Sequence record: SRR2962707_2065
Direction: 5' to 3' (one strand)
DNA: 43,603 nucleotides
Below the pieces are notes generated by a model. That model worked only from the letters and a program-made list of their open reading frames with translations. It made no database searches and was not told the origin of the DNA. Of the stretch, positions 1-43,441 are shown piece after piece. Each line of letters begins with the position of its first letter. Within the stretch, counting starts at the first letter, position 1. A program made the position numbers and the translations under genes.

Positions 1-130
1 TGCATTTGGTGTTTTCCTTATCGGCGTTCCCATGGGCAGCGTGACCGGCGGGGACAAAGAAGGTTTGATCTCCGTTTCCAAAGGTAAAATTCAATCAATG
101 GAAGCGGTAAGTAAAAATAAGGGCTGCTAG
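1..130 (+). CDS. 3' end of a small hypothetical (probably exported/lipo-) protein, cut by the window edge
   Basis: Frame 2 is open from the edge: AFGVFLIGVPMGSVTGGDKEGLISVSKGKIQSMEAVSKNKGC*, with TAG at 128-130. It resembles the C-terminus of small alphaproteobacterial lipoproteins. Confidence 0.55.
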   Translation, partial: AFGVFLIGVPMGSVTGGDKEGLISVSKGKIQSMEAVSKNKGC

Positions 131-234
131 ATCAAGTAGACAAAGCGTCTGCACGACCTGTCAACAACATACCTTCGATACGGTGCTGAAGTCTGATCGT
201 CTCCATTGTGTTATAACGCAAAACCACAGGAGTT

Positions 235-1212
235 TTGACAGTGACAAACGAGCCCTTGGCACCCTATCGCCTCTCAGAGGCATTTATCGGCGGACGAACT
301 TTTCAAATTGACGAAGCACAATATGCGACGCTTAACGATTCGCTAACTATGATCGCTTCGGCTATGGACATCGAAGAGTTATTTCAGGTCTTTGCGCAGT
401 CCTTTCTTAGGTTTGAAAAAGATCTTCTAGAAATAAGTTTCGAGTTTAACAATCACGATAAAAACGACGCAACCGAACTTCATTTTCTTCTCAGAAATAT
501 TCGAAACCGCTTTAATGTAAACATCATAACGATTCTGACATCGTACCAAGGCTATGACCATCAATGTGACAGAATTCTCACTTCTTCGGTTAACCCGCCA
601 GAAGCGCAAGAATTCAACCTCGAAATACGTCGTTCAGCATTCGAAAAACATCTAAGTTATCGTGTTTGCGCGCTACTTAGGAACTATGCCCAACACCGAG
701 CGCTTCCACTGGGTGGATTTGATATTGGCGCTGACGCAAATTTCAGTCGTGATGATTTAGGTAAACTCATAAAAGGTGACACGGGATTCAATGTTTCTCC
801 TTGGCTGGACGTCTTGACCTTTAAGGCATCTTCACAGTGCAAAGCCTATCTTCAAAAGGAGCTAGATGGTCTCGGATACGAAAAAATAGATATTAAATGG
901 CTAATTCGTTCTTTTGCCAGCGCTATGTACGAGCGTCATGCCGCGCTCCGAGCATTTTTAAAGCCCAAGGTTGAAGCGGCAGGTAAAAATATCGATGCAG
1001 GATATAATTTCGCCAGCCTAGAAAAAAACAGCGAGGCAACATTCCTTGTGCTTCACGGAAAGGGTGAGAAACGCCACATGAGAAATGATCTGGCTACGCT
1101 ACTCTTGACGCAGTTTGAAACCTACTCATCACTGCAAAACGCCGAGAATGTGTATGTCACATCACAGATAAAGCAAAAAGAAAACACATACTCTGGCCAA
1201 ACTATTGAATAA
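235..1212 (+). CDS. Hypothetical protein with a HEPN-like RxxxxH motif (putative RNase/toxin)
   Basis: 325-aa ORF with TTG start after an AGGAG RBS. Helical sequence containing YRVCALLRNYAQH (RNYAQH at 679-696). Confidence 0.6.
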   Translation: MTVTNEPLAPYRLSEAFIGGRTFQIDEAQYATLNDSLTMIASAMDIEELFQVFAQSFLRFEKDLLEISFEFNNHDKNDATELHFLLRNIRNRFNVNIITILTSYQGYDHQCDRILTSSVNPPEAQEFNLEIRRSAFEKHLSYRVCALLRNYAQHRALPLGGFDIGADANFSRDDLGKLIKGDTGFNVSPWLDVLTFKASSQCKAYLQKELDGLGYEKIDIKWLIRSFASAMYERHAALRAFLKPKVEAAGKNIDAGYNFASLEKNSEATFLVLHGKGEKRHMRNDLATLLLTQFETYSSLQNAENVYVTSQIKQKENTYSGQTIE

Positions 1213-1312
1213 CTAAAGAGTTTGCCTGTTCTCATCAAGCTGACATAGCTCCATACCTAATTGTCAATCAGCCCTGCCACACTTTTGAAAGCAGGCTGAA
1301 CTCCTCTCTCCC

Positions 1313-1654
1313 TTAGCTTGACCACGGCTTCTCAGTAAGATTCAGCGCATGGGTTGGACACCTAAAAAAATACACCCGATCAAAGGCGGATTGTATCGGC
1401 CGTTCAATCTCAGCGTCCGCAAAGTTCGTTGCACCTGAAACTAATAAAACTTTCGGTCGCTCTTTGGGAAGAATAATCGGAGGAACCATACCTGAAACAA
1501 TGACAAGCCAGCTCTCATCACACTGCCTGTAGCCCTTAAGAGCCTCATGCTTCTTTTCGAGGATTGGGTTTAAAGAAACTTCCGAAAAAGGCTCCACAGT
1601 GCCGCCGCGTGAGCATGTGACGGCCGAGGAGTTCTGTCCGTCATTGTAAAATTG
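1313..1654 (-). pseudogene. 5'-truncated remnant of a hypothetical protein (possibly nuclease-fold)
   Basis: The frame stays open upstream of the GTG (QFYNDGQNSSAVTCSRGGTVEPF...) up to a stop at the edge of an AT-rich tract, with no RBS or ATG. The pattern ILEKK..LKGY..CDESWLVIV...FDRVYFF looks like the C-terminal half of a larger protein. Confidence 0.45.
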
Positions 1655-2030
1655 TTATATAGAAATAATTATTTCTGATTAGTTCGCGAAAACGATCAAA
1701 TAGGCGCTGATAACAGCTGCAGTGTACTTAGCAAAAAAAATGCATATGTTTATACACAACAAAGTTTAATTGCTGCTTTGTAGCTAATTGTCGCAATAGG
1801 TTTTTACAAAAGACAATTATTTTAATTAATTTCCGTAAAGTTTTGTGAAAAAGTAGTTGAATTAAATCGCCTTTATTGCCCAAATTATTTTACGAAGATT
1901 TTAAGACTTCAGGAAAGAAATAATTGACCCCACAAATTTCTGATTTTCCCTTTTGCGCTTTGAAGGCAGTCATTATCCATGATACCGATCTCTTGATGTA
2001 TTTCTGAAAATTATCATCGAGAGCAAAAAT

Positions 2031-3080
2031 ATGGTTACTGAAGATGAAAATCCCGCAATTTGGGAAGCTTTCTGTACTGCGCTCGGCACCGAGTATCGCG
2101 AAGCTCAGGAAATAGTCGGCGCGAGTGGAATATCACATCCTGTCGAAGGTATAGGTGTAGATGACAAGGGCAAGCGTCTGGTCTTAGTCTCTGGCGAATA
2201 TAACCCCCGAATTGCTGCTCTTCTTCGGGTCGATGTACAAGCGACCATGACGGACGTTCGGGTGCTGGTTGCAAGGCCCCTAGCGCTCGATCTCGCTCAT
2301 ACCGCGCGAAAGATGTTCTTCACCGACGACGGTGTACTTGACATGCAGAGTATAATGCAGCTTTCCAAAATGGCCGAACAAGGTGACCGCGCTCAAGACT
2401 TTATGAAAGAAGCCTATGGGCCGTCGGCTACCGCACTTCTAAACTCAATGTCTAAAAGCAAACTTCCAGTTAGGTCTCACGTGCTTAATTTAGTTGAGCA
2501 GCTCACGTCATTGAACTGGGACCAAATGACGAAGCCAAACAAAGAGCAAGATTTGCTACAAGTTGCGGTTAATGTTCTCACGCAGTTTTCAACTATGGAC
2601 AACCTTGCCGCGGACCGCTCTCAGGGTATTTGTCCGATACCTACTTATGAATTGACGGATGCCGACTGGGAACTGTTTCAGAACCTAAAACATATTGAGG
2701 AAATCCAGGCAAGACTTCGGGAATTGAACATTTACCAATACTTTTACCCCCCAGCTGACAGCCTAGCATTGGGATTGATCGATAATGGCATAGCTACACA
2801 CTCAGAGATCGCCAGTGGCGTGGCGATAGCCGAGGCGCAAGGTCATCAGGTATCCAAAAACGCTCTGCTTGCAGACGTGACCAATTTCCAGGAAATTGTC
2901 GAACAATTGAAGGCAAGTGGTTATGCCATGGAGGGTGAATTCGCGATGGAGTTGACAGAAAAAGGGAAGGTGTTTCGACAATCTGTTAATATTAGGCCAA
3001 GCGAAAGCCTTTTTCAGAAGCTCTCACGACTTATGTCAGTGAAAGTGAACATAGATATTAAAGATTTGTTCGATCGATAG
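2031..3080 (+). CDS. Hypothetical protein with a restriction-endonuclease-like N-terminus
   Basis: 349-aa ORF with ATG after GAG. IVGASGISHPV resembles the G-x-SG-x-x-H motif of Mrr-like domains. The C-terminal LKASGY...ELTEKG resembles a winged-helix wing. Confidence 0.55.
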   Translation: MVTEDENPAIWEAFCTALGTEYREAQEIVGASGISHPVEGIGVDDKGKRLVLVSGEYNPRIAALLRVDVQATMTDVRVLVARPLALDLAHTARKMFFTDDGVLDMQSIMQLSKMAEQGDRAQDFMKEAYGPSATALLNSMSKSKLPVRSHVLNLVEQLTSLNWDQMTKPNKEQDLLQVAVNVLTQFSTMDNLAADRSQGICPIPTYELTDADWELFQNLKHIEEIQARLRELNIYQYFYPPADSLALGLIDNGIATHSEIASGVAIAEAQGHQVSKNALLADVTNFQEIVEQLKASGYAMEGEFAMELTEKGKVFRQSVNIRPSESLFQKLSRLMSVKVNIDIKDLFDR

Positions 3081-3332
3081 GAAGGAGCAGAGGCATCCGC
3101 AACTGCCATTCACAAATTCTGATTTATGGAATGACGAAAAAGTCCAAATGAAATATATATATAATTCGCGATAACATTCAATTATCAAAGCTAATTGATG
3201 TAAAAAAGGGAGGGGTTAAAACTCTCATTTATGATATTTATAAGGGCACATTGCCTTATATAACTGCAAAAGCTGCTAAAAACTCTGATCTAGTGGACAT
3301 CGACCACATGTACTAGACATTACTAATCATGC

Positions 3333-3644
3333 CTATTTGATCAGGTTATAGAAAATTTGGTGCATCCAGCTGCAATCAGGCATTCCGCGTTTCGCCAAGC
3401 AAACAAATTCGTCACGCTCTTCGTCCACACGAACACTATCTGTTTTGTCGATCGCGCTGCACCTACCTTCGAGGTATGCTTGGATCACAAACCGTTGTGC
3501 TGCTTCTTTATCAGCACTTTCCATCAACATATGCAGTTTTTTAGCATCACCATAGTATTTGCATGCGATACCTCCAATTTCATCTTGTGCACTCACAGAC
3601 GTCATTCCGCACAGAATAAAAATAAATACTAGAATTGCTCTCAT
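3333..3644 (-). CDS. Small secreted hypothetical protein
   Basis: ATG at 3644 follows a strong GGAGGAGG RBS. Signal peptide MRAILVFIFILCGMTSVSA, and four Cys in the mature part. Confidence 0.7.
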   Translation of the reverse strand: MRAILVFIFILCGMTSVSAQDEIGGIACKYYGDAKKLHMLMESADKEAAQRFVIQAYLEGRCSAIDKTDSVRVDEERDEFVCLAKRGMPDCSWMHQIFYNLIK

Positions 3645-3788
3645 TTCCTCCTCCAAAGTAGCCGCATTTATTTTCGCAAATCACTAATTCTACAAATAAA
3701 ACCGCGTTTTCTAGACATCCCTCAGGTTCATTTTCGCTGCTTTTAAAAGTCTGCAGGTGAAAGCAGCGTAATGATCGCGCCATCTAGA

Positions 3789-6700
3789 TTAAGGATGCCA
3801 ACGTTCACCAACTGCGGCCCGTTCGTCTTGACGTAGACCATCCCATTCATAACCTTCTGCTATTGTGATGATCATCGCTGAGACACGGGGATAGGAGTTC
3901 CCATATCGCCTAGCAAGAGCACGATAGTTACCTGCCAACTTCCGCTCCTGCGCTCCACCGTCATATGGACCGCGAGAGGTTACCCCACGCGCATTGCTTA
4001 CGCCCAAGCAAAACCGTTCACGCAAACCATCGTTTTGCTGACGGTTCAATAATTCAAGAACACAAGTAGGCAACCAATCATCCCAAGGTCGCCGACGAGC
4101 TAACCGCGCCAGCAAGGCCCCAAAATGAATTTGGGCAACCTCTCTTCGATCCGCCTCAGCGGCACCAATTAAAGCCTCATCGACCCAAGAATAGAAATCT
4201 TCATCGACTATTTCGCCATCCAAAGCGCTACCCGGAATTATTTCCCAACCTTCTAGTATATGGCGTGCCAACTTAGCTAGAAGTTCTTGTTTATCCTCAG
4301 TAAAATCATATTGAGAGGGTTCGAGCGCACCATCGCTTCGCTGATATCTCCAGCGAAGCAGTTGAACAAAAAGCATAGGTTTACGAGCTAATTCGCGATG
4401 CACTGCGAGAGTGCGTGTGTGGTTGCGATGTCCGTGCCTGCAAAGCAGCGGAACGAAAAACAATTCAAGATTTGCGATCTGTTCATCGGTTATTTCATCA
4501 GAAGCATCAAGTTGCTGGAGCACATCATCCAATTCGTAGGAGCTGGGGAATGGTCCATTTGGCTCTTCCCCCTGTCCCATAGCTTGCAGAATACGCATCC
4601 ACTGCTCAGCTGAAAGCCGATCTTTAACAAATGAAACGGCTGAAAACACAGATCGCGGCCGACTAGCGGCAAGCAATTTGTCAACAACATAATCAATTTC
4701 TTCCGGTGCCATGTCGTCCCGTACATGAATGTAAACTGAACTCCAAAACGCTGACGCAATATCATCACCCAAAGCCTCAGCGACGTGCCAACCAACTGAA
4801 CGCCCGGGGAGATGCTCAGCAAACCTCTTTCGTTGCTCTTCCATCTCAAGCAAACCTTGCTCAGTGAGCGCTGTGCTTACAGAACGCAAATCATTCCAAC
4901 TGGCATTCCATAATACCTGTTGCAGGAAGGCGTCGGAGCGATCATTCGGTTCTTCACGTAGTGCTGCACTAACCCAACGCGTCGCAGTCTCAAGACTTGC
5001 GTTTTGAGGAACCAATACCCTCGCAACCAAATCAGGCTGCTTTACACCTAGGGCGAACGGAAGAATTGCGTCTTCTCCAAATTGCTCTTGGATTTCAGTT
5101 AATGCTATGCGGCGTCTCTCTTCAATAATGGCCTCACGCTCCCGCCACGAAATACGCCCTTCACCTTCGTCTTCTGCCAATGCACGCCACTCTACATGGG
5201 AGCTTTTAAAAAGCCATCGATGGCGTGCCGTAGCGGAGTGCGGTTCTAGCGCGTCCTCAATTCGCTTAAGCGCGGTAACTAGTTCTTCTTCGTTATCGTT
5301 GTGCTGATACGCACGCAAAACGTCACGCTGCCGAAGAATATCCCGAAGCTCGGCCTTGTCTTCATCATCGGCACCATTTGACCAACGTTCCACTTCGCTT
5401 ACTAAGCGTTTTAAATCGTTTGGGTGCAGTCTTATTGCCACTTCAATCAGAAGCTTAAGTTCAGCAATGTCGCAGGGCGCTAAATCCAAAAGCAAGTGGC
5501 TGGCTTCAATTGCTGCATTAAGTACTTCGACGTCGGTTGGACTAGGCACTTCTTCTTCCAATGCTCGCCATTGTGGTCTCGCAGCTCTAGAAGCAAATCC
5601 CGGCCCGCCTTCTGGTAAAAGTGAAATACACACGTCAATGACAGGACCTCGAAAGCTGTCTGAAAGGCCACGCAATACCGCCATCCGGTCAGGCATTTTA
5701 AGGGCTGTGGCTGGCAACCACGCCAAAAACAGCGAACGGGCCGTTGATTTTGGCGAGTTTGACCAGTTGTCTTCAACCTCAAGTCCTCTTAAGCCAAATA
5801 TGATTTCTGCCACCCGCGAAAAATGAGCCGGATGCCAAGCCAGTAACTCTAATGCCCAAAGTAGGTCCGTTCTTAGGCAGTCGCCACTAATTCCCCCTTC
5901 TACTGTACCCATAATTGCACTGATCGGTGGGGTTGGCCTACTAAGCTCATATTCCAAACAATCGAGAAAGGCCGTGGGCGACGCTTCGGCGAGCATTCTC
6001 AGATGGCCGCGGATTGTAAGCCAGCGTTCCGCATCTGCGTCCTGAAGGAGCTTACGGACAACTTGATCAGCGCGATATCGCAAATCAATACCTAGCCGAT
6101 CACCACAAATTTCAGAGCCATAAATAGACACAATACATAAAGCATCGCCCAGACCGGAGAGTAGCGCCCCAGAGTTGCTTCGCGTGTGACCCAATGCATC
6201 AGCCATCCACCATTGTTCTTGCGGAAGGTCCAGCGCAGGATCTCTATCCCCCAAAATTTCCGGCAATAGTTGGAAAAAGCGGTCTAAATCTTCTCGCTCG
6301 ATATACGGCCCAACAGCAAAAAGTGCGTCTAATTGGGAAACAACCACATTTACATGGCCATAACGGGCAATTGGAGCGTCATCAAGTGCCAACAATTCTT
6401 GCTGAATGCGTACGACATCTCCTTTTTCAAGTTCACCAAGGAGTTGAATTATTATTTCATCATCCATGTTTTCACGCTCTACCCAAGAGCCAGCAAGCGC
6501 AAAAGGTAGTAAGAGCTTGGCTGATGCGCGATTGCGCGCCCAAAGTGGTCGCCTGACCTCAGGATCGCTTGATAGATGACGGCGTAAAACCGGAACCGAA
6601 TGACCCGTCTTCAATGCCATGCTTGTAGCTTCGTCGCGCGGTAGTCCCATGGCCTCAAGCTCAGAACGGAACGTCTCAGAAGGAACATGTGAAAGCAAGA

Positions 6701-7580
6701 GTGCATCTCTGACATCCAAACGGCCCTTGGGATAAGCACGGACAATGGTGATGTTTCGCCGGTCCCCAAAGTCTAACTCTTCACCTTCAGCTACATCCGC
6801 TACAACAATCAAACGGTTCGGGCCGGAAGGAATTCTGGCATCACTGGAGGTGGCCACAAGAGTGCGATCAAGAAGATCAAGTGCATCAGCTTCTATTAAA
6901 GACGAAACGACAAACGCAACGGCCTCTTCCCTGTCATCAGCTTGAACTGGAATGACGCGCGAACCATCGCGCAGCTTAGACAGCAGTGTCTCTCGCTCTG
7001 TATGCCGCCTTGTCGAGACAAGTTTCATGGTGATTGGTGGCACAGACGCGGTTGCCCACGCTTGCCACCACTCTTGCGGTGTTTTTAGGCCTGTGGAGGC
7101 TACTCCGATTTTTTCACCTAGCCAACGTGTGGTCGCGGGAGCCTCTTCTAGCCAAGTTTCGAGGTCGATAGCATCAAATGCGTGCACGGACGCCCAGCGG
7201 CCCTCCCGACGTCGCTCCGCAAGCCAAACGTCTTTGCTGCCCCACCTTCTGGGGGTTACAAAGACAAAACTGCTGGCCAAGCGATCTTCCAGAGGAGTTT
7301 CATTAGTTCGCTTGGAATAGTCACCATCTGCTTTTATACGCGGGTCTTGATTGCAACCCATTTCCCAAACGCTTCGGCCTTCCGGAACCCAAGTAGTTGC
7401 AGTATCGCATTCAACTTGACCATCCAGACCTGCCAAATCAACAGCTTCATTGCCAGGAAACCGTAACACTTTTAGATTTTGTGTAGTTTCCCGGATCAAT
7501 CTGCGAACTAGAATAGGCAGGTTGCTTCGACACTCATGGCGGTCAGCCCACTGGCGAATTTTCGTTTCGTCAATCAACAT
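3789..7580 (-). CDS. Large protein: N-terminal PD-(D/E)XK-like nuclease, degenerate STAND/P-loop-like region and helical C-terminus (candidate defence protein)
   Basis: 1263-aa ORF. N-terminal motifs GLDG...WEMG...KADGDYSKRT, FVFVTP and DAIDLETWLE. A Walker-A-position segment IPVQADDREEAVAF and a Walker-B-like LIVVAD. Long Leu/Trp-rich helical region. Confidence 0.65.
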   Translation of the reverse strand: MLIDETKIRQWADRHECRSNLPILVRRLIRETTQNLKVLRFPGNEAVDLAGLDGQVECDTATTWVPEGRSVWEMGCNQDPRIKADGDYSKRTNETPLEDRLASSFVFVTPRRWGSKDVWLAERRREGRWASVHAFDAIDLETWLEEAPATTRWLGEKIGVASTGLKTPQEWWQAWATASVPPITMKLVSTRRHTERETLLSKLRDGSRVIPVQADDREEAVAFVVSSLIEADALDLLDRTLVATSSDARIPSGPNRLIVVADVAEGEELDFGDRRNITIVRAYPKGRLDVRDALLLSHVPSETFRSELEAMGLPRDEATSMALKTGHSVPVLRRHLSSDPEVRRPLWARNRASAKLLLPFALAGSWVERENMDDEIIIQLLGELEKGDVVRIQQELLALDDAPIARYGHVNVVVSQLDALFAVGPYIEREDLDRFFQLLPEILGDRDPALDLPQEQWWMADALGHTRSNSGALLSGLGDALCIVSIYGSEICGDRLGIDLRYRADQVVRKLLQDADAERWLTIRGHLRMLAEASPTAFLDCLEYELSRPTPPISAIMGTVEGGISGDCLRTDLLWALELLAWHPAHFSRVAEIIFGLRGLEVEDNWSNSPKSTARSLFLAWLPATALKMPDRMAVLRGLSDSFRGPVIDVCISLLPEGGPGFASRAARPQWRALEEEVPSPTDVEVLNAAIEASHLLLDLAPCDIAELKLLIEVAIRLHPNDLKRLVSEVERWSNGADDEDKAELRDILRQRDVLRAYQHNDNEEELVTALKRIEDALEPHSATARHRWLFKSSHVEWRALAEDEGEGRISWREREAIIEERRRIALTEIQEQFGEDAILPFALGVKQPDLVARVLVPQNASLETATRWVSAALREEPNDRSDAFLQQVLWNASWNDLRSVSTALTEQGLLEMEEQRKRFAEHLPGRSVGWHVAEALGDDIASAFWSSVYIHVRDDMAPEEIDYVVDKLLAASRPRSVFSAVSFVKDRLSAEQWMRILQAMGQGEEPNGPFPSSYELDDVLQQLDASDEITDEQIANLELFFVPLLCRHGHRNHTRTLAVHRELARKPMLFVQLLRWRYQRSDGALEPSQYDFTEDKQELLAKLARHILEGWEIIPGSALDGEIVDEDFYSWVDEALIGAAEADRREVAQIHFGALLARLARRRPWDDWLPTCVLELLNRQQNDGLRERFCLGVSNARGVTSRGPYDGGAQERKLAGNYRALARRYGNSYPRVSAMIITIAEGYEWDGLRQDERAAVGERWHP

Positions 7581-7958
7581 ATTGCCACCTTTGCCACCGT
7601 AAAATGCAACTTATTTACATAAATGGTATTTGAGCCGGTTAATGACAACCCGTAATTGCAATAGTTGGTTACGTAACGTTAATTTACCAATTACATGGCC
7701 GCTGCGGATTTACGAATTTTGTCCACATAATGGAAATACAACTAACGATAACTCCCAATTTTCAATTCTAACTGCAGGCACAAAAAATCCTTTTGGCTAG
7801 CAAATTACAAAAGTATAATGCAAAATATGGTTCGTAAGTTTATGAAATAATTCTAGAATAAGCTGATAGGGCCTATTAAAGTAGATTATTACTGCGTAAT
7901 GTTGAAACGCCTGCTCGTCATGTATTTGGTTGGTTAGCTCGAATTACAAAGGCCGAAA

Positions 7959-8780
7959 ATGAACATCCCAACGTGGGCCAAAGCCAAGGCAAAATTGAGC
8001 GTGAAGGTAAATGATATTTATCGTCCCTTTATGTCAACGCCTGATAGTATGAAGCGATATGTTCGACCTGCTTTGTTCAGCACAGGCGATCCTGCATTTG
8101 AATTACGATACTTTGGGACAGCACTAATGGCAAGTTACTGCGATGTGCGTTTCGCGATTACAACCGCTCATCAAGTGGATACAAAGAAGGATGCGCCTGC
8201 AGCGGAGACTTTCGTTGTGGTCGTCGAAGGGCCTAGCGGGAAAATTGCGCTTCCCCCGGCATCTTATAACCAGCCTAGCTTCGCCGAAACGGAGTACTCT
8301 TCACTTAACGATTTAGTGTTCTTTGACTATGAAAACGATGTTGTAAGCAAAGGTGTAGATTTCCTGAATTTATCACAGGTGTTTTGGTCAGACGACCGCG
8401 ATTTGAATACTGATTACTCCTTTGTGATCGGTTACCCGACGAGTTCAGTAGCAATCGAAGTTGATTTAGACAATGGATCATCATTGTCGGAATTTGTTTT
8501 GCGCTGGGTAAGGCAGGATCTGCAGTCTGCTCCAGCAGAACCAATGGATACCGAAAATAGAAATATTTTTGTAAAACATGAAGGTTCAAAGCGTATCAGT
8601 ATAGAGCCAGATGGCCTTAGTGGGTCACCCGTTTTCTCCATCGTTTCTAACAGTTCAAAAGAGCGGCAGCTGAAATTTGAAGGTATAGTGACCGATGCAA
8701 ATAAGGATCGGTTTGCCGTGTATCCAAGCTCATTAATCAGGAAATCGCTTGATTGCATTCTAGAAAAACAAGCTAGTTAG
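7959..8780 (+). CDS. Trypsin-like (PA clan) serine protease, cytoplasmic
   Basis: Catalytic triad motifs in order: ITTAH (His), NDLVFF (Asp), DGLSGSPVF (Ser). No signal peptide or PDZ domain. Confidence 0.75.
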   Translation: MNIPTWAKAKAKLSVKVNDIYRPFMSTPDSMKRYVRPALFSTGDPAFELRYFGTALMASYCDVRFAITTAHQVDTKKDAPAAETFVVVVEGPSGKIALPPASYNQPSFAETEYSSLNDLVFFDYENDVVSKGVDFLNLSQVFWSDDRDLNTDYSFVIGYPTSSVAIEVDLDNGSSLSEFVLRWVRQDLQSAPAEPMDTENRNIFVKHEGSKRISIEPDGLSGSPVFSIVSNSSKERQLKFEGIVTDANKDRFAVYPSSLIRKSLDCILEKQAS

Positions 8781-9033
8781 CTTCGATTGCTTCTAGAGAG
8801 CGCGTATAGTGATCCGCGAGCTGGTTTTTCTTCATCTTTAATAACTCTGTTTCTTCATGCTCGGGACATTTTAGCACTCAATGATAGCCAAGCCATACTC
8901 AGCGCCGTTGGCCCTGTCGCGATAGCTCCCAATTATCACGACCAAAAATGCATCAGCTCGATGGTCTCTTAGCCTTCAATGCTTTTACTTAATGTGATCG
9001 ATCGTTTGTAGTCTAATCTAGTTGTCACCGGCG

Positions 9034-10629
9034 TTATTTCAAATAACGGGCAAGTTCATCGAATTCGAATAAATGTGTAAAATCCAAACTTGATTTTAAC
9101 GCTTTGATTTCTTCATTTATCGCTTTCTCATTTATAAATGAGGCGCCCTCAATGAGACCCTTTGCCAAAGTCGTGCGTAAGTATGAGCCTTGGTCAGTTC
9201 CTCTAGCCCCAGTCAGGACAAAACTGCCAAGACAGGTTATCTTGAAATCGTCGCTGAACTTCGGGCTAAGAATTACAATGCGTAGCGTTTCGCACAAGGT
9301 TTCGGCTGCCCAAAATGGTATCGCACACGCATTGCCTGCCTCACTTGCAGTCGTAGGCGCTTTGTGTGCATTTTGATCGGGCAGCGTGTGATCCAGTTCA
9401 ACCCAGCTTTCAAGGGTTGTCAGTGCTTTGAAAATCAAAGCTTCTTTTAGGTCAGAACCTTCAGACAATTGATTTTCTGGGCGTGTTCTATTTTTAGGAA
9501 GCTCTTCGAGATCTTTGACGAAAAATCGCAAATACATTAACCACATATGGTCCATATGTTCTTGTGTCGCAGCTTGCCGGACAAGGATATCAAAGAAGTG
9601 AATGGCAGAATATGTGATGTCGTCAAAAAGGTCGACACTTTCTTGAGGTGGAGCTTCATTTAGCCGAGCTTGATATGCTTTATTTTCTTTAATTTCCTTA
9701 GTTACGGCATCACCAACTGGCTTCCAGACACCTATTTTAGTTGCAAATTCCACTTGGCCAACAAGAGCATTAAGAAGAGTGCTTTCCTCAGAAATAAAAT
9801 ATCTGTTTAGATTGCGACCGTCTGTCCGCTTGATGTCTTGCCGTAGGTGGCTTTCTTTTTCCACCATGCTTTCGGCAAGGTAGAGATCGCACCAATCATA
9901 GTGGCTATCATAGAAGCGAGTGAAAAGCTGCGCAGCAAATTTCGGTTTAATGGTGTGGAATACATTTCGAACGCCTTTGCTTTTGGCTAAAATATCAATG
10001 ATTAACCGAGCACTATGCGTTTGCCGTTGAAATGAAGGGTGTAACCAACGAAGTGATACGAATATCCAGCGGCTCCACTTTGGACTTCTCCATCTAGGCT
10101 TCTTTTGAAGTCTATCTAAATATTCGTCTGCGGCAACCTTCTTTTCGCTTGCATAGGCAACCCAGTCATATCTTCTAAGCGCCCCAACCGTTCGTTCAAC
10201 ACTATGGCGCAAAACTGGCAAATAAGGCTCAACAAGCTCAAGTAATTCAAGGTAGCGCCTCTCGTCGTGGAGCCTCTCAACCAGAGGCAGAAGTCGTTTT
10301 AACTTTCCCGAATGAGGGCGATCAAAAAGAAATGACAGCCATGCAGCAATCGCCCAAATCAACGTTGCGATGAAAGCGATGTGTGTATTATTTAGTGGAT
10401 CATTCGGATTTCCAAACCCAAGCCCTTCCACCCCAAGTTTATACTCAGCGGGAAGGACATTCAGGATTGGCCCTATAAATTCAAATGGCAGTATAATGAG
10501 AAGAGCGGCGCAGATTAAAAAAACCTGATTTGGCGCATTGATGCGCAGCTTCAAACGCGTGACAGGGTCAAGGACGGCATAGCCCGCTATAAGTAAGCCG
10601 AAAAACGTCAAGAAACCATCTAAACTCAA
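9034..10629 (-). CDS. Hypothetical membrane-anchored protein (about 3 N-terminal TM helices plus a large soluble helical domain)
   Basis: 531-aa ORF with TTG start. Three hydrophobic segments in the first ~105 aa, then hydrophilic helical sequence. Confidence 0.7.
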   Translation of the reverse strand: MSLDGFLTFFGLLIAGYAVLDPVTRLKLRINAPNQVFLICAALLIILPFEFIGPILNVLPAEYKLGVEGLGFGNPNDPLNNTHIAFIATLIWAIAAWLSFLFDRPHSGKLKRLLPLVERLHDERRYLELLELVEPYLPVLRHSVERTVGALRRYDWVAYASEKKVAADEYLDRLQKKPRWRSPKWSRWIFVSLRWLHPSFQRQTHSARLIIDILAKSKGVRNVFHTIKPKFAAQLFTRFYDSHYDWCDLYLAESMVEKESHLRQDIKRTDGRNLNRYFISEESTLLNALVGQVEFATKIGVWKPVGDAVTKEIKENKAYQARLNEAPPQESVDLFDDITYSAIHFFDILVRQAATQEHMDHMWLMYLRFFVKDLEELPKNRTRPENQLSEGSDLKEALIFKALTTLESWVELDHTLPDQNAHKAPTTASEAGNACAIPFWAAETLCETLRIVILSPKFSDDFKITCLGSFVLTGARGTDQGSYLRTTLAKGLIEGASFINEKAINEEIKALKSSLDFTHLFEFDELARYLK

Positions 10630-10774
10630 TGTGCGTTACCTTTTTTGAATAACCGCCGAGTATCACGTCAACCGTAAAAAAGCAGTAGGAAATATGAGCT
10701 TCAAAATTGACTTAAAACGACCAGAAGATAGACTGGGTAGTTAATTGCGATCGTCAACTTTGCGCGCAAAACGC

Positions 10775-11214
10775 TCATTTCAAGCTAGAAAAACTGAGAC
10801 TGCGGGCTTTTAAAGTTACGTCACAAAATTTAGACACGTCGGAAACATCGCTAGTTCTGTGTATTGCGCGCGATGGCACGTAGAGCACAATACCGAAAAG
10901 TCGCTTGCTTTTAGTTCACGAATTTCGTTCGCTTCCATCTCAGCCCAAGGCAAAAGATGATGTAATTCAAATACACTACCCCAGATAGGCTGATCTTTTT
11001 GGGAAATAGAGTAAAAACAAGCCTCGCATTTAAATCCTTTTTCATGAATGAAGCCTCGGTTATTACCCCGTCCTTCCCATCTTTCATGTAGTTTGCGATG
11101 CCTGTAATCAGTCACGCTTTTCTGTCCCGTGGGCAAAGCCGCTTGGTCGTGTGCATATTTCAATGTATTTTTGATCCGCTCTTTTGATGCTTTAGGATAA
11201 ACGGAAGCTCCTTT
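10775..11214 (-). pseudogene. McrA-like HNH endonuclease remnant (5'-truncated and frameshifted)
   Basis: CEAC...FELHHLLPW...LCSTCHR zinc-HNH motifs. Removing 2 nt from the CG run at 10865-10872 restores CHRAIH and reads to TGA at 10775-10777. Upstream the frame hits a stop at ~11215 with no ATG. Confidence 0.7.
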
Positions 11215-39969: not shown

Positions 39970-41631
39970 CTAGTCATCTTTTACAAATTTCCCAGAATTT
40001 AATAATGCAGAAAGCTTCTCAACTAGAACGCTGGGATCGTCGTTCGTCCTCTTGAAGTCGGCCTTTTTGATCAACCTTTCCTGTTCTTCCAAAGTCATCT
40101 TCATATAGCCTTCGACGGTTATCTTTGGATTGGCATGACCCAAATTTCTACTCCATGCCAATGCCTCAGGAAAGGAGAGTCCCAATTCCATTATGAGGTG
40201 CCCAATTGTATGGCGAACCGAATGAGGGGTATATGGTGGATGCCCTGACATTAAGAATGCACGCGTAAAAATCCGCACAGCCGCTTGACTATCTGCCCAA
40301 TGGCGCTTTTGGACTTCCTTTTGTCCAAAATGCCTTTTGCCCAACTTGTTGGGACCGGTCCGCGGGAAGAGCGGATCACAATCACTGAAATGCAATTCAG
40401 ACCGTAAATACCGCTCCCATTCTACAACGATTTTTGTGAGTTCATCGCTTATTGGCAAAAGATATGTGTGGATGTTCTTACCAAACTTTGTATTGACCTC
40501 ATTACCTGCTTGCCGGAGATACATCCGCGCAACGTCGAGATGTTTCAGTTTTAGCGAAATGCATGCGCCTATCCTAACGCCGGTGAGAGCCAATAATGCA
40601 AGCATGGCCTGATCTCTTCGCTGTAAAACATTATCTAACGGCATAGCCTTGATAACATTTTCCAAATCTTTAAATGACGGAAATTTAGGAGCTGTTTCCA
40701 CGTGTTGAGCCCGACGACGATCGCGATTTGTAACATTCAAGTAATCGACGTCACTAAAACGAATTTTACCGCCAAACTCCGGTTCATCTGCAAGAAATAT
40801 TAAAAACTTTTGCAGAGTCCCCAATTCTGCTATGCGTGACGGAAGGGTTAGATGAGTCATAGAAAGATAAGTCTTGTATTCGATCGCCTGCTCTTTTGAG
40901 AAATCTGCAAAATTGACAAAGTCATATTTTTGCTCATACCGCAGCAGGGCAATTTCATCTTTTCGTATGGACTTCAAATTACGGCCCTTACTATGCTCGA
41001 GGTAATGAAAGAACTCTCTTTTTAGTCGCTCATTATGAGCATTACAGGGTAGAATTGGCTCTGTAACTTGTCGCTTTTTTATCTCATTACAATTCGCACC
41101 ATCGCAGGTCGAAGAATTATCCAAATCACCAACGGGTTCGTTTCCGTCCTTTTGCAACGATTCAATGCCATTATTGGGCACGATACGATTCCTAATGAAT
41201 CTATCTATTTGCCCCAACAAAGCTTTATCAGCACCAGCAATCGCTTTTGCATTTTCGACGGTAATGCCTTGGTTATTCGTTTTACCACAAACGGTGCATT
41301 CGCCATAGAACTGTAGTGCTGAGTTTATGCGTTCAACGAAACGTACACTTTCTCGCAGCGTCGGCTGAGACTTGGTACATTTGAAACAATAGAGTTCTTC
41401 GAGCGCCGTCCGGTGCTTTCTTTTAGCCCAACGTTCATGGTGCCAGTTTCTGAATTCCCAGCCATAAATCAAGATCTCATGATGATTATCAATAGTCGGC
41501 AGACCGCAGTCCAAATAGCCTTCTATCGTGTCCACTGTTTTATCTAATGCATTGGCGAGCTCGCAAAGGGAGTAAGACTTTGTCGGTCTAATTTTGCGTA
41601 GATCTGGTCGCCGTTTTGAATCTTTTGGCAT
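39970..41631 (-). CDS. Tyrosine recombinase with fused N-terminal HTH and Zn-ribbon
   Basis: Catalytic set GVR, TKFGK, HSVRH, LGH and GY. N-terminal SYSLCELANAL...TIEGY..GLP HTH plus CFKC/CTVC. ATG 41631 after GGAG (the ORF track extends to 41721). Confidence 0.85.
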   Translation of the reverse strand: MPKDSKRRPDLRKIRPTKSYSLCELANALDKTVDTIEGYLDCGLPTIDNHHEILIYGWEFRNWHHERWAKRKHRTALEELYCFKCTKSQPTLRESVRFVERINSALQFYGECTVCGKTNNQGITVENAKAIAGADKALLGQIDRFIRNRIVPNNGIESLQKDGNEPVGDLDNSSTCDGANCNEIKKRQVTEPILPCNAHNERLKREFFHYLEHSKGRNLKSIRKDEIALLRYEQKYDFVNFADFSKEQAIEYKTYLSMTHLTLPSRIAELGTLQKFLIFLADEPEFGGKIRFSDVDYLNVTNRDRRRAQHVETAPKFPSFKDLENVIKAMPLDNVLQRRDQAMLALLALTGVRIGACISLKLKHLDVARMYLRQAGNEVNTKFGKNIHTYLLPISDELTKIVVEWERYLRSELHFSDCDPLFPRTGPNKLGKRHFGQKEVQKRHWADSQAAVRIFTRAFLMSGHPPYTPHSVRHTIGHLIMELGLSFPEALAWSRNLGHANPKITVEGYMKMTLEEQERLIKKADFKRTNDDPSVLVEKLSALLNSGKFVKDD

Positions 41632-41735
41632 TTTATGCTCCAAACTTGGATGTAAAGAACTGCCTCCGTCGCGAACGCAACGAAGAGTGGTATCTTCAAA
41701 AATTCTAGCGTCGATCTTCAAGGTGGGACGAATGG

Positions 41736-42228: not shown

Positions 42229-43419
42229 CTAAAAAACTCCATTGCTCTTCAATTCATTCTGCCACTTTTCTAAAGCGATCAGCTTTTCATCAAAATAGGA
42301 ATAGCGATTATAGGTACCGGCAACGCCTTCCACGACATGTCCCAAAACTCTTTCAATGTGCTCTTGAGCCACCGCGAGACGAGCCATATGGGTTGCGACA
42401 GAGCGTCGAATATCGTGCAAGGTCCAATCCTCTACCCCACTAACCTTATCCAACCGCAGCTTCAACTTGCTGAATCCCGATACGGGTTTTATGCCGCCAT
42501 TTGTTGAGAATAGGAACTCCCCTTTTTCCCAAAACGGTTGAGCTGAAACCAATGTGGCGGCCGCCGTTGAAAGAGGCACTACATGTACTCGTTTAGTTTT
42601 ATAAATTGTGGCCGGTATTTCAAATAAGGTTTGTTCTTTAGAAAGCCAGCTACGTCGCATGCCAGCAATTTCGGAACGCCTTTGTCCCGTAAGGATGAGT
42701 AGCTTTACGATCGGACCGAACGGAAAGCCGCCTTGGTCTGCAGCTAGCCAGATTTTCTTGATTTCATCAATTTCAAGAACTCGCTCTCGCGGAATGTAGG
42801 CTAACTCAGGCCGCCTCATGCCAGCCATTGGACTTGCGGGTAGCATCCCTCTGTCTACGGCCCAATTAAAAAACTTCGAAAGTTTACGTCTCAGCTCACT
42901 TGCGTAGCTCTCACCTCTGTCCTTTATCAACAAATCAATAAGTTCGTGGACGTCCGATCTCCCGATTTCACGAATATCACGTTGATGCCAACCGTACTTT
43001 AAGGGACACTCCAAAAGACGAGCCGTATTGCGCCAGTTCTTCGTATTCGGCCTAGCATAAAGTTCCACGTAGCGTTCCAGAACTTCATTGTAGCGATTTT
43101 TATTGCGTAAGACAGCTTCATCTTGCCTGCTCGAGCTGGGATCAATACCCAAATCAACAAGTTGCTTAGCTTTACGATGAGCGGCTCTCGCGCTTTTCAA
43201 ATCCATAAATGGATAAGCTCCAAGCGTGTACCGCTTTAAACTGCCTGTCTTACCGTCCAAACCAGCACCAGCAACGCGGTACAACATGGACCACGTCTTC
43301 TTACCCTTCTGCGTAACGCGAAGAACTAACCCGGGAGACAGCTCATCAAAGATATCTAAGCGGCCCACAGTCGGGGATGCGAGTTTTTGGATTGATAATT
43401 CAGTAAGTCGTTTTTTCAT
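42229..43419 (-). CDS. P4-like tyrosine integrase with N-terminal arm-binding domain
   Basis: GLVLRV..GKKTW..YR...TLGAYP arm domain. Catalytic TGQRRSE, HDIRRS, VLGH and TY. ATG at 43419, adjacent to the tRNA att. Confidence 0.95.
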   Translation of the reverse strand: MKKRLTELSIQKLASPTVGRLDIFDELSPGLVLRVTQKGKKTWSMLYRVAGAGLDGKTGSLKRYTLGAYPFMDLKSARAAHRKAKQLVDLGIDPSSSRQDEAVLRNKNRYNEVLERYVELYARPNTKNWRNTARLLECPLKYGWHQRDIREIGRSDVHELIDLLIKDRGESYASELRRKLSKFFNWAVDRGMLPASPMAGMRRPELAYIPRERVLEIDEIKKIWLAADQGGFPFGPIVKLLILTGQRRSEIAGMRRSWLSKEQTLFEIPATIYKTKRVHVVPLSTAAATLVSAQPFWEKGEFLFSTNGGIKPVSGFSKLKLRLDKVSGVEDWTLHDIRRSVATHMARLAVAQEHIERVLGHVVEGVAGTYNRYSYFDEKLIALEKWQNELKSNGVF

Positions 43420-43441
43420 CTGGGGTAACACTGGGGTAACA
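43420..43441. repeat. Tandem 11-bp direct repeat, probable integrase arm-type binding sites
   Basis: CTGGGGTAACA twice, abutting the integrase ATG and about 125 bp from the att core. Confidence 0.75.

Follow-up and report, generated by a model that had tools for sequence, protein, structure and literature searches.

A widespread family of Avs-like proteins with a predicted nuclease domain and a STAND-like domain that lacks the P-loop

Receptors of the STAND/NLR type are defined by a nucleotide-driven switch, and Avs3 and Avs4 use ATP. DSR2-type proteins work without a nucleotide switch: a large HEAT-like sensor, which binds a structural protein of the phage, restrains an N-terminal effector; in DSR2 this effector is a SIR2 domain, and a STAND-like module is absent. 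Degenerate nucleotide-binding modules have also been described. KpAvs8, of the PD-lambda-4 family, has degenerate Walker motifs and is probably without ATPase activity according to its authors, in the part of that report considered here (10.64898/2026.01.04.697583). Inactive STAND (iSTAND) modules, as far as the consulted portions of the reports describe them, include BrxB, BrxF, the PglW C-terminus, the PglZ N-terminus and the MoxR-vWA iSTAND/iSTAND2, and have been proposed to be invader sensors (PMC12839542; PMC8195603); those published are components of systems of several genes, are fast-evolving and no longer have the C-terminal helical bundle (PMC12839542). Here, we analyze a gene for a 1263-residue protein on a stretch of DNA of 43,603 nucleotides (sequence record SRR2962707_2065; the whole stretch is called the window, and positions are numbered along it). 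The protein joins a predicted nuclease to a STAND-like domain without a P-loop and to a long alpha-solenoid. We favor, at about an even chance, the view that it is a single-protein, probably nucleotide-independent, Avs-like sensor-nuclease for defense.

The fold of the central domain was assessed on a model of residues 1-345 (AlphaFold, 62 sequences; predicted local distance difference test, pLDDT, 93.1; predicted template-modeling score, pTM, 0.90). The top three Foldseek matches of this model are all Avs-type proteins, namely Avs3 (8dgc_A, E 4.6e-6, probability 1.00), AVAST5 (9nc9, E 2.6e-4) and Avs4 (8dgf, E 4.9e-4), with RFC, NorQ and Clp ranking behind them. When residues 162-345 were compared by VIA, the Z scores were 8.9 for ClpA, 8.7 for NRC4, 8.7 for NRC2, 8.1 for ZAR1, 8.1 for RFC, 7.6 for Apaf-1 and 7.4 for EfAvs5, and 40 of the 999 re-aligned chains reached Z ≥ 8. 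A protein-language-model look-up of residues 162-420 named nSTAND_NTPase5 (0.78) and nSTAND3 (0.75) as the nearest clusters, below the trusted level and thus a lead only. Because the Foldseek ranking places the Avs proteins first and a winged helix follows the lid, we assign the domain to the STAND type. In the models, the nucleotide-binding domain (NBD, with an ASCE core), the lid and the winged helix come in the order typical of STAND proteins, the winged helix being recognized by its secondary-structure order only. The original prediction had expected a STAND-like fold at residues ~190-450, and a core and lid at residues 162-345, followed by the winged helix, are predicted there.

The predicted fold lacks the loop that gives such domains their nucleotide site. 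The Walker A of an AAA+-like domain is expected between beta1 and alpha1, a position taken in the model by strand 209-214 and helix 217-230. Only two residues connect this strand and helix, and such a link would leave no loop to hold phosphate. None of the 193 family sequences carries [AG]xxxxGK[ST] at the beta1-alpha1 position, and 167 of the 193 carry [AG][DG][DSG]xxEAxAF there. Strings resembling GK[ST] in 28 of the 193 sequences were considered as Walker A candidates and rejected, because they do not follow the core strand and most of them fall in a solenoid loop at residues ~460-470. This loop (residues ~461-470, window ~6171-6200) is itself conserved. It reads W-A-A-x-x-Y-G-K-[ST]-R in the clade that bears a helix-turn-helix (HTH) domain, where it mimics a Walker A, and contains LGHTRS in the window protein, with G464 nearly invariant and S470 invariant.

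The site of the missing loop is well conserved. E219 and A222 are invariant across phyla and D215 is nearly so (alignments of 30, 62 and 166 sequences). The lid helices (residues 301-343) are present in the model and align with AAA+ lids, and one of them carries four invariant residues (Table 1). No hhhhD[DE] Walker B following strand 257-261 is conserved in the family alignment. The sensor-2 and GxP anatomy of AAA+ and STAND domains offers a guide to the lid helix, and by this analogy residues 325-336 may represent a sensor-2-like arginine pair or a GxP-like relic. Since none of the 193 sequences has a Walker A at the expected position, and since E219, A222 and the lid residues are invariant, we take the loss of the P-loop to be old and common to the whole family, with selection still acting on the site. 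The P-loop had been suspected to be dead in the window copy; the loss turns out to be real and to extend to the family. From the pattern of conservation, we further suggest a possible latch in the former place of the nucleotide, made up of the acidic residues D215/E219 and, from the lid, the arginines R333/R334.

The N-terminal domain is the presumed effector. A nuclease-like domain of ~160 residues had been proposed from the sequence, and residues 1-160 are indeed predicted to adopt the alpha-beta-beta-beta-alpha-beta core of the PD-(D/E)xK superfamily. In VIA, this domain matches AF1548 best (Z 10.0 over 112 residues, root-mean-square deviation 2.5 Å), followed by LlaBIII, an Mrr-like nuclease (9.4), the FokI cleavage domain (8.6), AspBHI (8.6), MspJI (8.3) and Can2 (8.1). 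D53, G54, W72, E73, K83 and D87 are invariant in 30/30 and 62/62 sequences and are found in at least 97% of 166. In the model, D53 precedes strand 2 and E73 closes strand 3. Two residues on, where a canonical (D/E)xK motif would have its lysine, the protein has Gly75; an invariant lysine, Lys83, is carried by the helix that comes next. Given this arrangement, a nuclease active site in residues 1-160 is graded as probable and not as established. The invariance of D53, E73, K83 and D87, in the domain that varies least along the chain, argues that the effector is under selection. A second invariant acidic cluster, D136-x-x-D139-L-E141-x-W143 (residues 135-143, window 7152-7178), is located after the fifth nuclease strand and may serve as an interface or bind an additional metal.

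The remainder of the protein was modeled separately (residues 340-1263, 924 residues; AlphaFold, 61 sequences; pLDDT 87.2, pTM 0.69). Residues ~351-413 (model residues 12-74) show the order H-E-H-H-E-E, by which topology they are probably a winged helix, yielding the NBD-lid-winged-helix order of STAND and ORC/Cdc6 proteins. The original prediction of ~900 helical residues in the C-terminal part therefore stands insofar as most of this part is helical, and fails insofar as this winged-helix unit intervenes. A long solenoid follows, whose Foldseek matches are generic (FANCI, karyopherin-beta2, CAND1 and CRM1, E 2e-5 to 4e-4). Its best VIA match is Gea2 at Z 9.6, with all others at or below 8.0, which is below the caution level of the tool for repeats. 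By these comparisons, the predicted sensor is a generic HEAT/ARM-like solenoid and not demonstrably the tetratricopeptide-repeat (TPR) sensor of the nuclease-STAND-TPR layout that had been proposed. The chain ends in a helical cap with a conserved loop, in which N1196, R1198, G1199, G1209 and E1212 are invariant in 30/30 sequences, and G1199, G1209 and E1212 are found in at least 97% of 166.

Table 1 Positions of the gene and of its predicted protein features in the window, with column entropy over 166 full-length sequences
Feature	Window position	Strand	Residues	Column entropy	Basis or remark
Whole gene	3789..7580	-		 	1263 residues plus stop; ATG start
Shine-Dalgarno-like AAGGTGG	7585..7591	-			Read in the sequence; 4 nt between its end and the ATG
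PD-(D/E)xK (restriction-endonuclease-like) nuclease domain, presumed effector	7101..7580	-	1-160	1.65 (lowest of all domains)	Predicted model and fold search
Candidate active-site residues GLD53G, WE73, K83AxxD87Y	7317..7430	-	51-88		Putative catalytic role
AAA+/STAND-type alpha/beta core and helical lid, without Walker A	6546..7097	-	162-345	2.09 (mid-range)	Foldseek and VIA
QADDREEA link in place of the P-loop	6921..6944	-	213-220		Strand 209-214 runs directly into helix 217-230
Lid helix with invariant G326, S328, R333, R334 (TGHSVPVLRRHL)	6573..6608	-	325-336		Conserved columns
Winged-helix unit after the lid	6336..6545	-	346-415	2.04	Topology only
HEAT/ARM-like alpha-solenoid, presumed sensor	4101..6335	-	416-1160		Most variable at residues ~700-960
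Solenoid, first part			416-700	1.79	
Solenoid, middle part			701-960	2.46 (highest)	
Solenoid, last part			961-1160	2.23	
Conserved C-terminal helical cap	3792..4100	-	1161-1263	1.88	Helices at model residues 833-921
Conserved loop N-x-R-G...G-G-x-Q-E-R between two cap helices	3942..3995	-	1196-1213		

The column entropies in Table 1 indicate a conserved scaffold around a more variable middle solenoid. Alignments across phyla span the whole chain, and the solenoid is covered along its full length at 27-30% identity. Each of the motifs quoted from the sequence alone was recovered in the 1263-residue translation: GLDG at residues 51-54, WE(MG) at 72-75, KADGDY at 83-88, QADDREEA at 213-220 and GVTSRGPYDGGAQER at 1199-1213. 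The last of these had been taken for the end of the chain; it is present, but 50 residues lie downstream of it before the C-terminus, so it is not terminal. The open reading frame (ORF) is far above chance, given that its 3.8-kb open frame has 267 relatives, at least 668 genomic copies and 3982 clusters. The G+C content of the gene is 50.4%, as compared with 43% in its immediate flanks and 49.8% in the remainder of the window. A promoter and terminator scan returned sites no more numerous than in shuffled sequence.

The family is large and carries no name. A protein search scored 8000 candidates, of which 267 were relatives at E ≤ 0.001; nearly all of the 120 relatives listed are 1250-1380 residues long and cover 100% of the query, and full-length relatives share 27-76% identity with the window protein. 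The searches covered proteins of 694-2211 residues, and fused or split forms were sought within that range. In species-representative genomes of many phyla, at least 668 copies were confirmed by tblastn, of which 73 loci were kept for study. A profile of residues 1-345 matched 3982, 3406 and 2432 clusters (50% identity) at E ≤ 1e-3, 1e-10 and 1e-30, respectively. For the window protein, neither Pfam nor PADLOC v2.0 contains a family matching at E ≤ 1, NCBIfam gave two noise matches alone (E 0.13 and 0.16), and phmmer and profile searches of PDB sequences returned nothing useful, the best match being a de novo designed ATPase (E 0.043). Most relatives at ~30% identity have an extra N-terminal HTH_3/HTH_31 (XRE-type) domain of ~100 residues, and HTH_3 is the sole source of the database names "XRE family regulator" and "HigA antidote" that they bear. 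The clade of the window protein is without this domain. No separate HTH gene or small partner ORF was found beside the gene, and the 67-residue ORF at 3580..3783 (-) matches no family.

The nuclease is retained in 71 of the 73 loci, and a swapped effector was observed in none. Upstream of the two nuclease-less copies (L048 and L061), no substitute domain or nuclease relic was found. The latter of these relatives, which lacks half of the NTPase-like domain as well, stands directly upstream of BREX BrxF-BrxC (L061:7959-10979 and L061:10976-15201). Occurrence of the gene is patchy: within one taxonomic family, it was present in 5 of the 301 genomes sampled. It is found on 25 of 72,556 plasmids, 12 of which are conjugative, and phages hardly ever carry it (a single, partial match in 50,697 records). 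Two of the plasmid matches (H21 and H25) are truncated remnants. On the Buttiauxella plasmid NZ_CP033075.1, a copy at 3875-6643 (L074) matches residues 361-1245 only; immediately upstream of this copy, on the opposite strand, is a gene for a group II intron reverse transcriptase. In another genome (G271:C1:3854928-3857252), the first 110 codons are ~1.3 kb apart from the rest of the gene, which suggests an insertion into the gene.

The genes around the family members are not conserved, the largest neighbor cluster being found in 5 of ~70 loci. At each locus, the closest ORF on either side of the gene with a length of 110 residues or more was taken as a neighbor, which gave 124 proteins at 66 loci; L001, L024, L032 and L043 have no such ORF, and L071-L073 were dropped. 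Pfam matches at E ≤ 1e-5 were obtained for 57 of the 124 neighbors. By our own sorting, 24 of these 57 are of defense, restriction or toxin-antitoxin types (Type ISP twice, DUF499 three times, Fic three times, RES, HNH twice, Lit, AbiTii, TOTE primase, SIR2_2, GmrSD, DUF6079, PIN_12, ArdA, a STAND-TPR protein, methylases and others), 9 are transposase, integrase or replication genes and 24 are other, such that 33 of the 57 are defense-type or mobile-element genes. PADLOC matches at E ≤ 1e-10 were obtained for 24 of the 124 neighbors (18 of the 66 loci once three doubtful matches are set aside), and the models include RM IIG, Avs2, Lit, AbiTii, HmaC, SoFic, ThsA-like SIR2, BrxF/BrxC and GmrSD. 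As a control, 124 random ORFs from nine 20-kb stretches of family-carrying genomes gave 9 matches, mostly ABC-ATPase and UvrD cross-matches plus one PtuA (P = 0.008 on raw counts, Fisher's exact test). When generic ABC, UvrD, MoaA and primase cross-matches were removed by our judgement, the counts became 21 vs. 1 (P = 5e-6). One relative is found between an Avs2 protein (PADLOC E 2e-239) and a Lit-like peptidase (L013:2789-6964 and L013:12059-12991), in a clear defense island. The absence of a conserved partner gene, the patchiness, the plasmid carriage and the defense-rich neighbors together are genomic behavior typical of defense genes.

The surroundings of the gene within the window neither add to nor detract from this picture of defense islands. 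The flanks of low G+C content (window 1-3700 and 7600-11200) hold ORFs without a family (235-1212, 2031-3080 and 9034-10629, the last with an N-terminus that looks membrane-spanning) and an ORF at 10816-11163 with a weak HNH match (E 0.005); the flanking segment looks like a mosaic island. A 273-residue ORF at 7959-8780 (+), divergent from the gene, has no match in Pfam, PADLOC or NCBIfam, and its strings TTAHQV...GLSGSPVF look to us like those of a trypsin-type serine protease. Catabolic and transporter genes are located farther along the window, and two tyrosine recombinase (Phage_integrase) genes, one with an Arm DNA-binding domain, lie at its far end (39970-41721 and 42229-43431, both on the minus strand). 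No tRNA genes were found in the window.

The window protein resembles Avs3 and Avs4 (PDB 8dgc and 8dgf) in being a single chain that joins a PD-(D/E)xK-type nuclease, a STAND-type module and a long helical-repeat sensor, and the predicted models thus show the tripartite Avs layout of effector, STAND module and repeat sensor. The family also resembles the Avs proteins in consisting of stand-alone genes with a patchy occurrence in defense islands. It differs from Avs3 and Avs4 in the absence of Walker A from all 193 members examined, and from Avs proteins in having a HEAT/ARM-like sensor, an effector that is not exchanged and, in most members, an added XRE HTH. When the profile of residues 1-345 was aligned by hhalign to an alignment of 36 Avs2 relatives, the probability was 0.13% (E 0.43). 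The protein therefore does not appear, by its sequence, to be a member of a known Avs family, the comparison covering PADLOC v2.0 and Avs2 and stopping short of the later-named Avs6-24. An Avs-like receptor had been predicted, and the resemblance holds for architecture and fold but does not extend to sequence kinship with the Avs families (no PADLOC match, in addition to the hhalign result).

Other precedents are less close in build. To our knowledge, DSR2 is the nearest nucleotide-free precedent in working principle. The window protein differs from DSR2-type proteins in having a nuclease effector and a STAND-like module, and PADLOC revealed no sequence relation between them; no DSR2 chains were seen in the solenoid fold-search lists inspected. 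Dsr1-like proteins are among the neighbors of relatives. The window protein is like KpAvs8 insofar as the latter is an Avs protein probably without ATPase activity. KpAvs8, however, is a single degenerate homolog in a family whose members otherwise bear an ATPase (EcAvs8), as far as the consulted part of its report goes, whereas the window family is loop-less across ~4000 clusters. There appears to be no sequence relation between the two, because PADLOC, which includes PD-lambda-4 models, gave no match. With iSTAND modules, in the portions of the reports considered here, the window domain shares an eroded Walker A/B in a STAND/ORC-Cdc6-type fold paired with nuclease effectors. In contrast to them, it retains the lid and the winged helix and is well conserved, and the window protein is a single-gene unit with a ~750-residue solenoid, not part of a conserved multi-gene system. 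A keyword search of the open-access literature, which did not extend to preprint supplements, returned no description of a single protein with a nuclease, an iSTAND and a solenoid.

On the favored reading of a sensor-nuclease for defense, the protein would consist of four modules: the PD-(D/E)xK effector, the P-loop-less NBD-lid-winged-helix unit, the ~750-residue solenoid sensor and the C-terminal cap. In the resting state, the nuclease would be restrained by the solenoid and the cap. Binding of a conserved invader molecule, perhaps a phage protein or a nucleic acid, by the solenoid would release or re-orient the N-terminal modules. DNA cleavage by the nuclease would then halt the infection, perhaps at the expense of the host cell. 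Because the P-loop is absent, ligand binding would be the sole driver of this switch, with no part played by nucleotide exchange, and the invariant D215/E219 and R333/R334 may act as a fixed latch that replaces the nucleotide. Of this scheme, the analysis shows the folds in predicted models, the absence of the P-loop, the pattern of conservation, the organization as a single gene, the patchy occurrence and the setting in defense islands; we infer that the nuclease is active, that nucleotide is not bound, and that the protein senses phage and defends the cell, as well as its ligand and its oligomeric state. A bolder version, which we offer tentatively and hold at well below an even chance, is that the window protein could be the type member of an unnamed NLR-like receptor family of ~4000 clusters, in which the P-loop was deleted early, the D215/E219-R333/R334 latch took shape and the solenoid ligand alone activates the nuclease.

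Several observations weigh against the favored reading. All structural statements rest on predicted models, and the Z scores of 7-9 for the central domain are tied between the Clp/RFC AAA+ proteins and the NLR/Apaf-1 proteins, near the level that the tool regards as a common arrangement. The lysine of the (D/E)xK motif appears as glycine in the window protein. The solenoid seems more uniform than would be expected of a sensor in an arms race, and the effector is fixed across the family, whereas Avs families differ in this respect. An N-terminal XRE-type HTH, as found in most members, is more usual in regulators. At the sequence level, searches of Pfam, NCBIfam and PADLOC, the PDB profile search and hhalign against Avs2 indicate no link to any known defense family, and the ORFs that flank the gene in the window match no defense model in Pfam, PADLOC or NCBIfam.

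Among the alternatives, the one that survives best, though we consider it rather unlikely, is a restriction-like nuclease that senses DNA. The solenoid, the winged helix and the HTH of most relatives would bind foreign DNA through some feature such as a structure, an end or a modification, and cleavage by the PD-(D/E)xK domain would follow, in the manner of a motorless Type IV-like enzyme. Several results fit this explanation. The best matches of the nuclease are Mrr-like or modification-dependent enzymes (AF1548, LlaBIII, AspBHI and MspJI), a winged helix is present, HTH_3 is fused to most family members, and the solenoid matches include the DNA-binding FANCI, condensin and cohesin loader, as well as AlkC (Z 6.1). 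The high conservation of the solenoid would also suit an invariant ligand such as DNA, and inactive STAND domains have been proposed as nucleic-acid receptors in the part of the literature consulted (PMC8195603). The solenoid matches, however, are generic (all Z ≤ 9.6), no methyltransferase or other self-protection partner is conserved beside the gene, and the clade of the window protein is entirely without the HTH.

A function outside immunity, either as a MalT/AfsR-type transcription regulator with a degenerate nuclease fold or as a maintenance or addiction factor of a mobile element, is improbable in our view. The database names of the relatives ("XRE family transcriptional regulator" and "HigA antidote") and the presence of MalT among the fold matches (8bob_D, Z 7.4) would speak for a regulator, but the names derive solely from HTH_3, which is absent from the window protein, and D53, E73 and K83 do not vary across phyla, as would be expected of a functional active site. 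Plasmid carriage, neighboring transposases and integrases, and the two integrase genes within the window would suit a mobile-element function; no regulated operon or partner toxin is conserved beside the gene. It is also improbable that the same sensor-nuclease still switches through non-canonical binding of a nucleotide or of some other phosphorylated ligand: the invariant pocket residues D215, E219, R333 and R334 show a site still under selection, and the lid and winged helix are retained where BrxB-type iSTANDs, in the consulted portion of the source, have lost the helical bundle (PMC12839542), but the two-residue join of strand and helix leaves no phosphate-wrapping loop, acidic residues occupy the Lys and Ser/Thr positions, and a conserved hhhhD[DE] Walker B is absent after strand 257-261.

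The interest of the family, which we grade as moderate to high, lies in its size without a name and in the clean loss of its P-loop. The claim is tempered by prior work, as inactive STAND modules and the degenerate-Walker Avs8 are already described in the published sources considered here. The family would add a large group to the defense repertoire that Pfam, NCBIfam and PADLOC models do not cover, and whose members are currently annotated as "HTH transcriptional regulator", "HigA antitoxin" or "hypothetical". Judging from the methods in the consulted part of a recent report, surveys of STAND proteins that are seeded on NTP-binding motifs would miss it (10.64898/2026.01.04.697583). If the proposed scheme is true, receptors with a NOD module would signal without nucleotide exchange as the design of a whole family and not as an occasional degenerate copy. 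A widespread P-loop-less family with an NBD, a lid, a winged helix and a nuclease would thus be a natural test of the role of the nucleotide.

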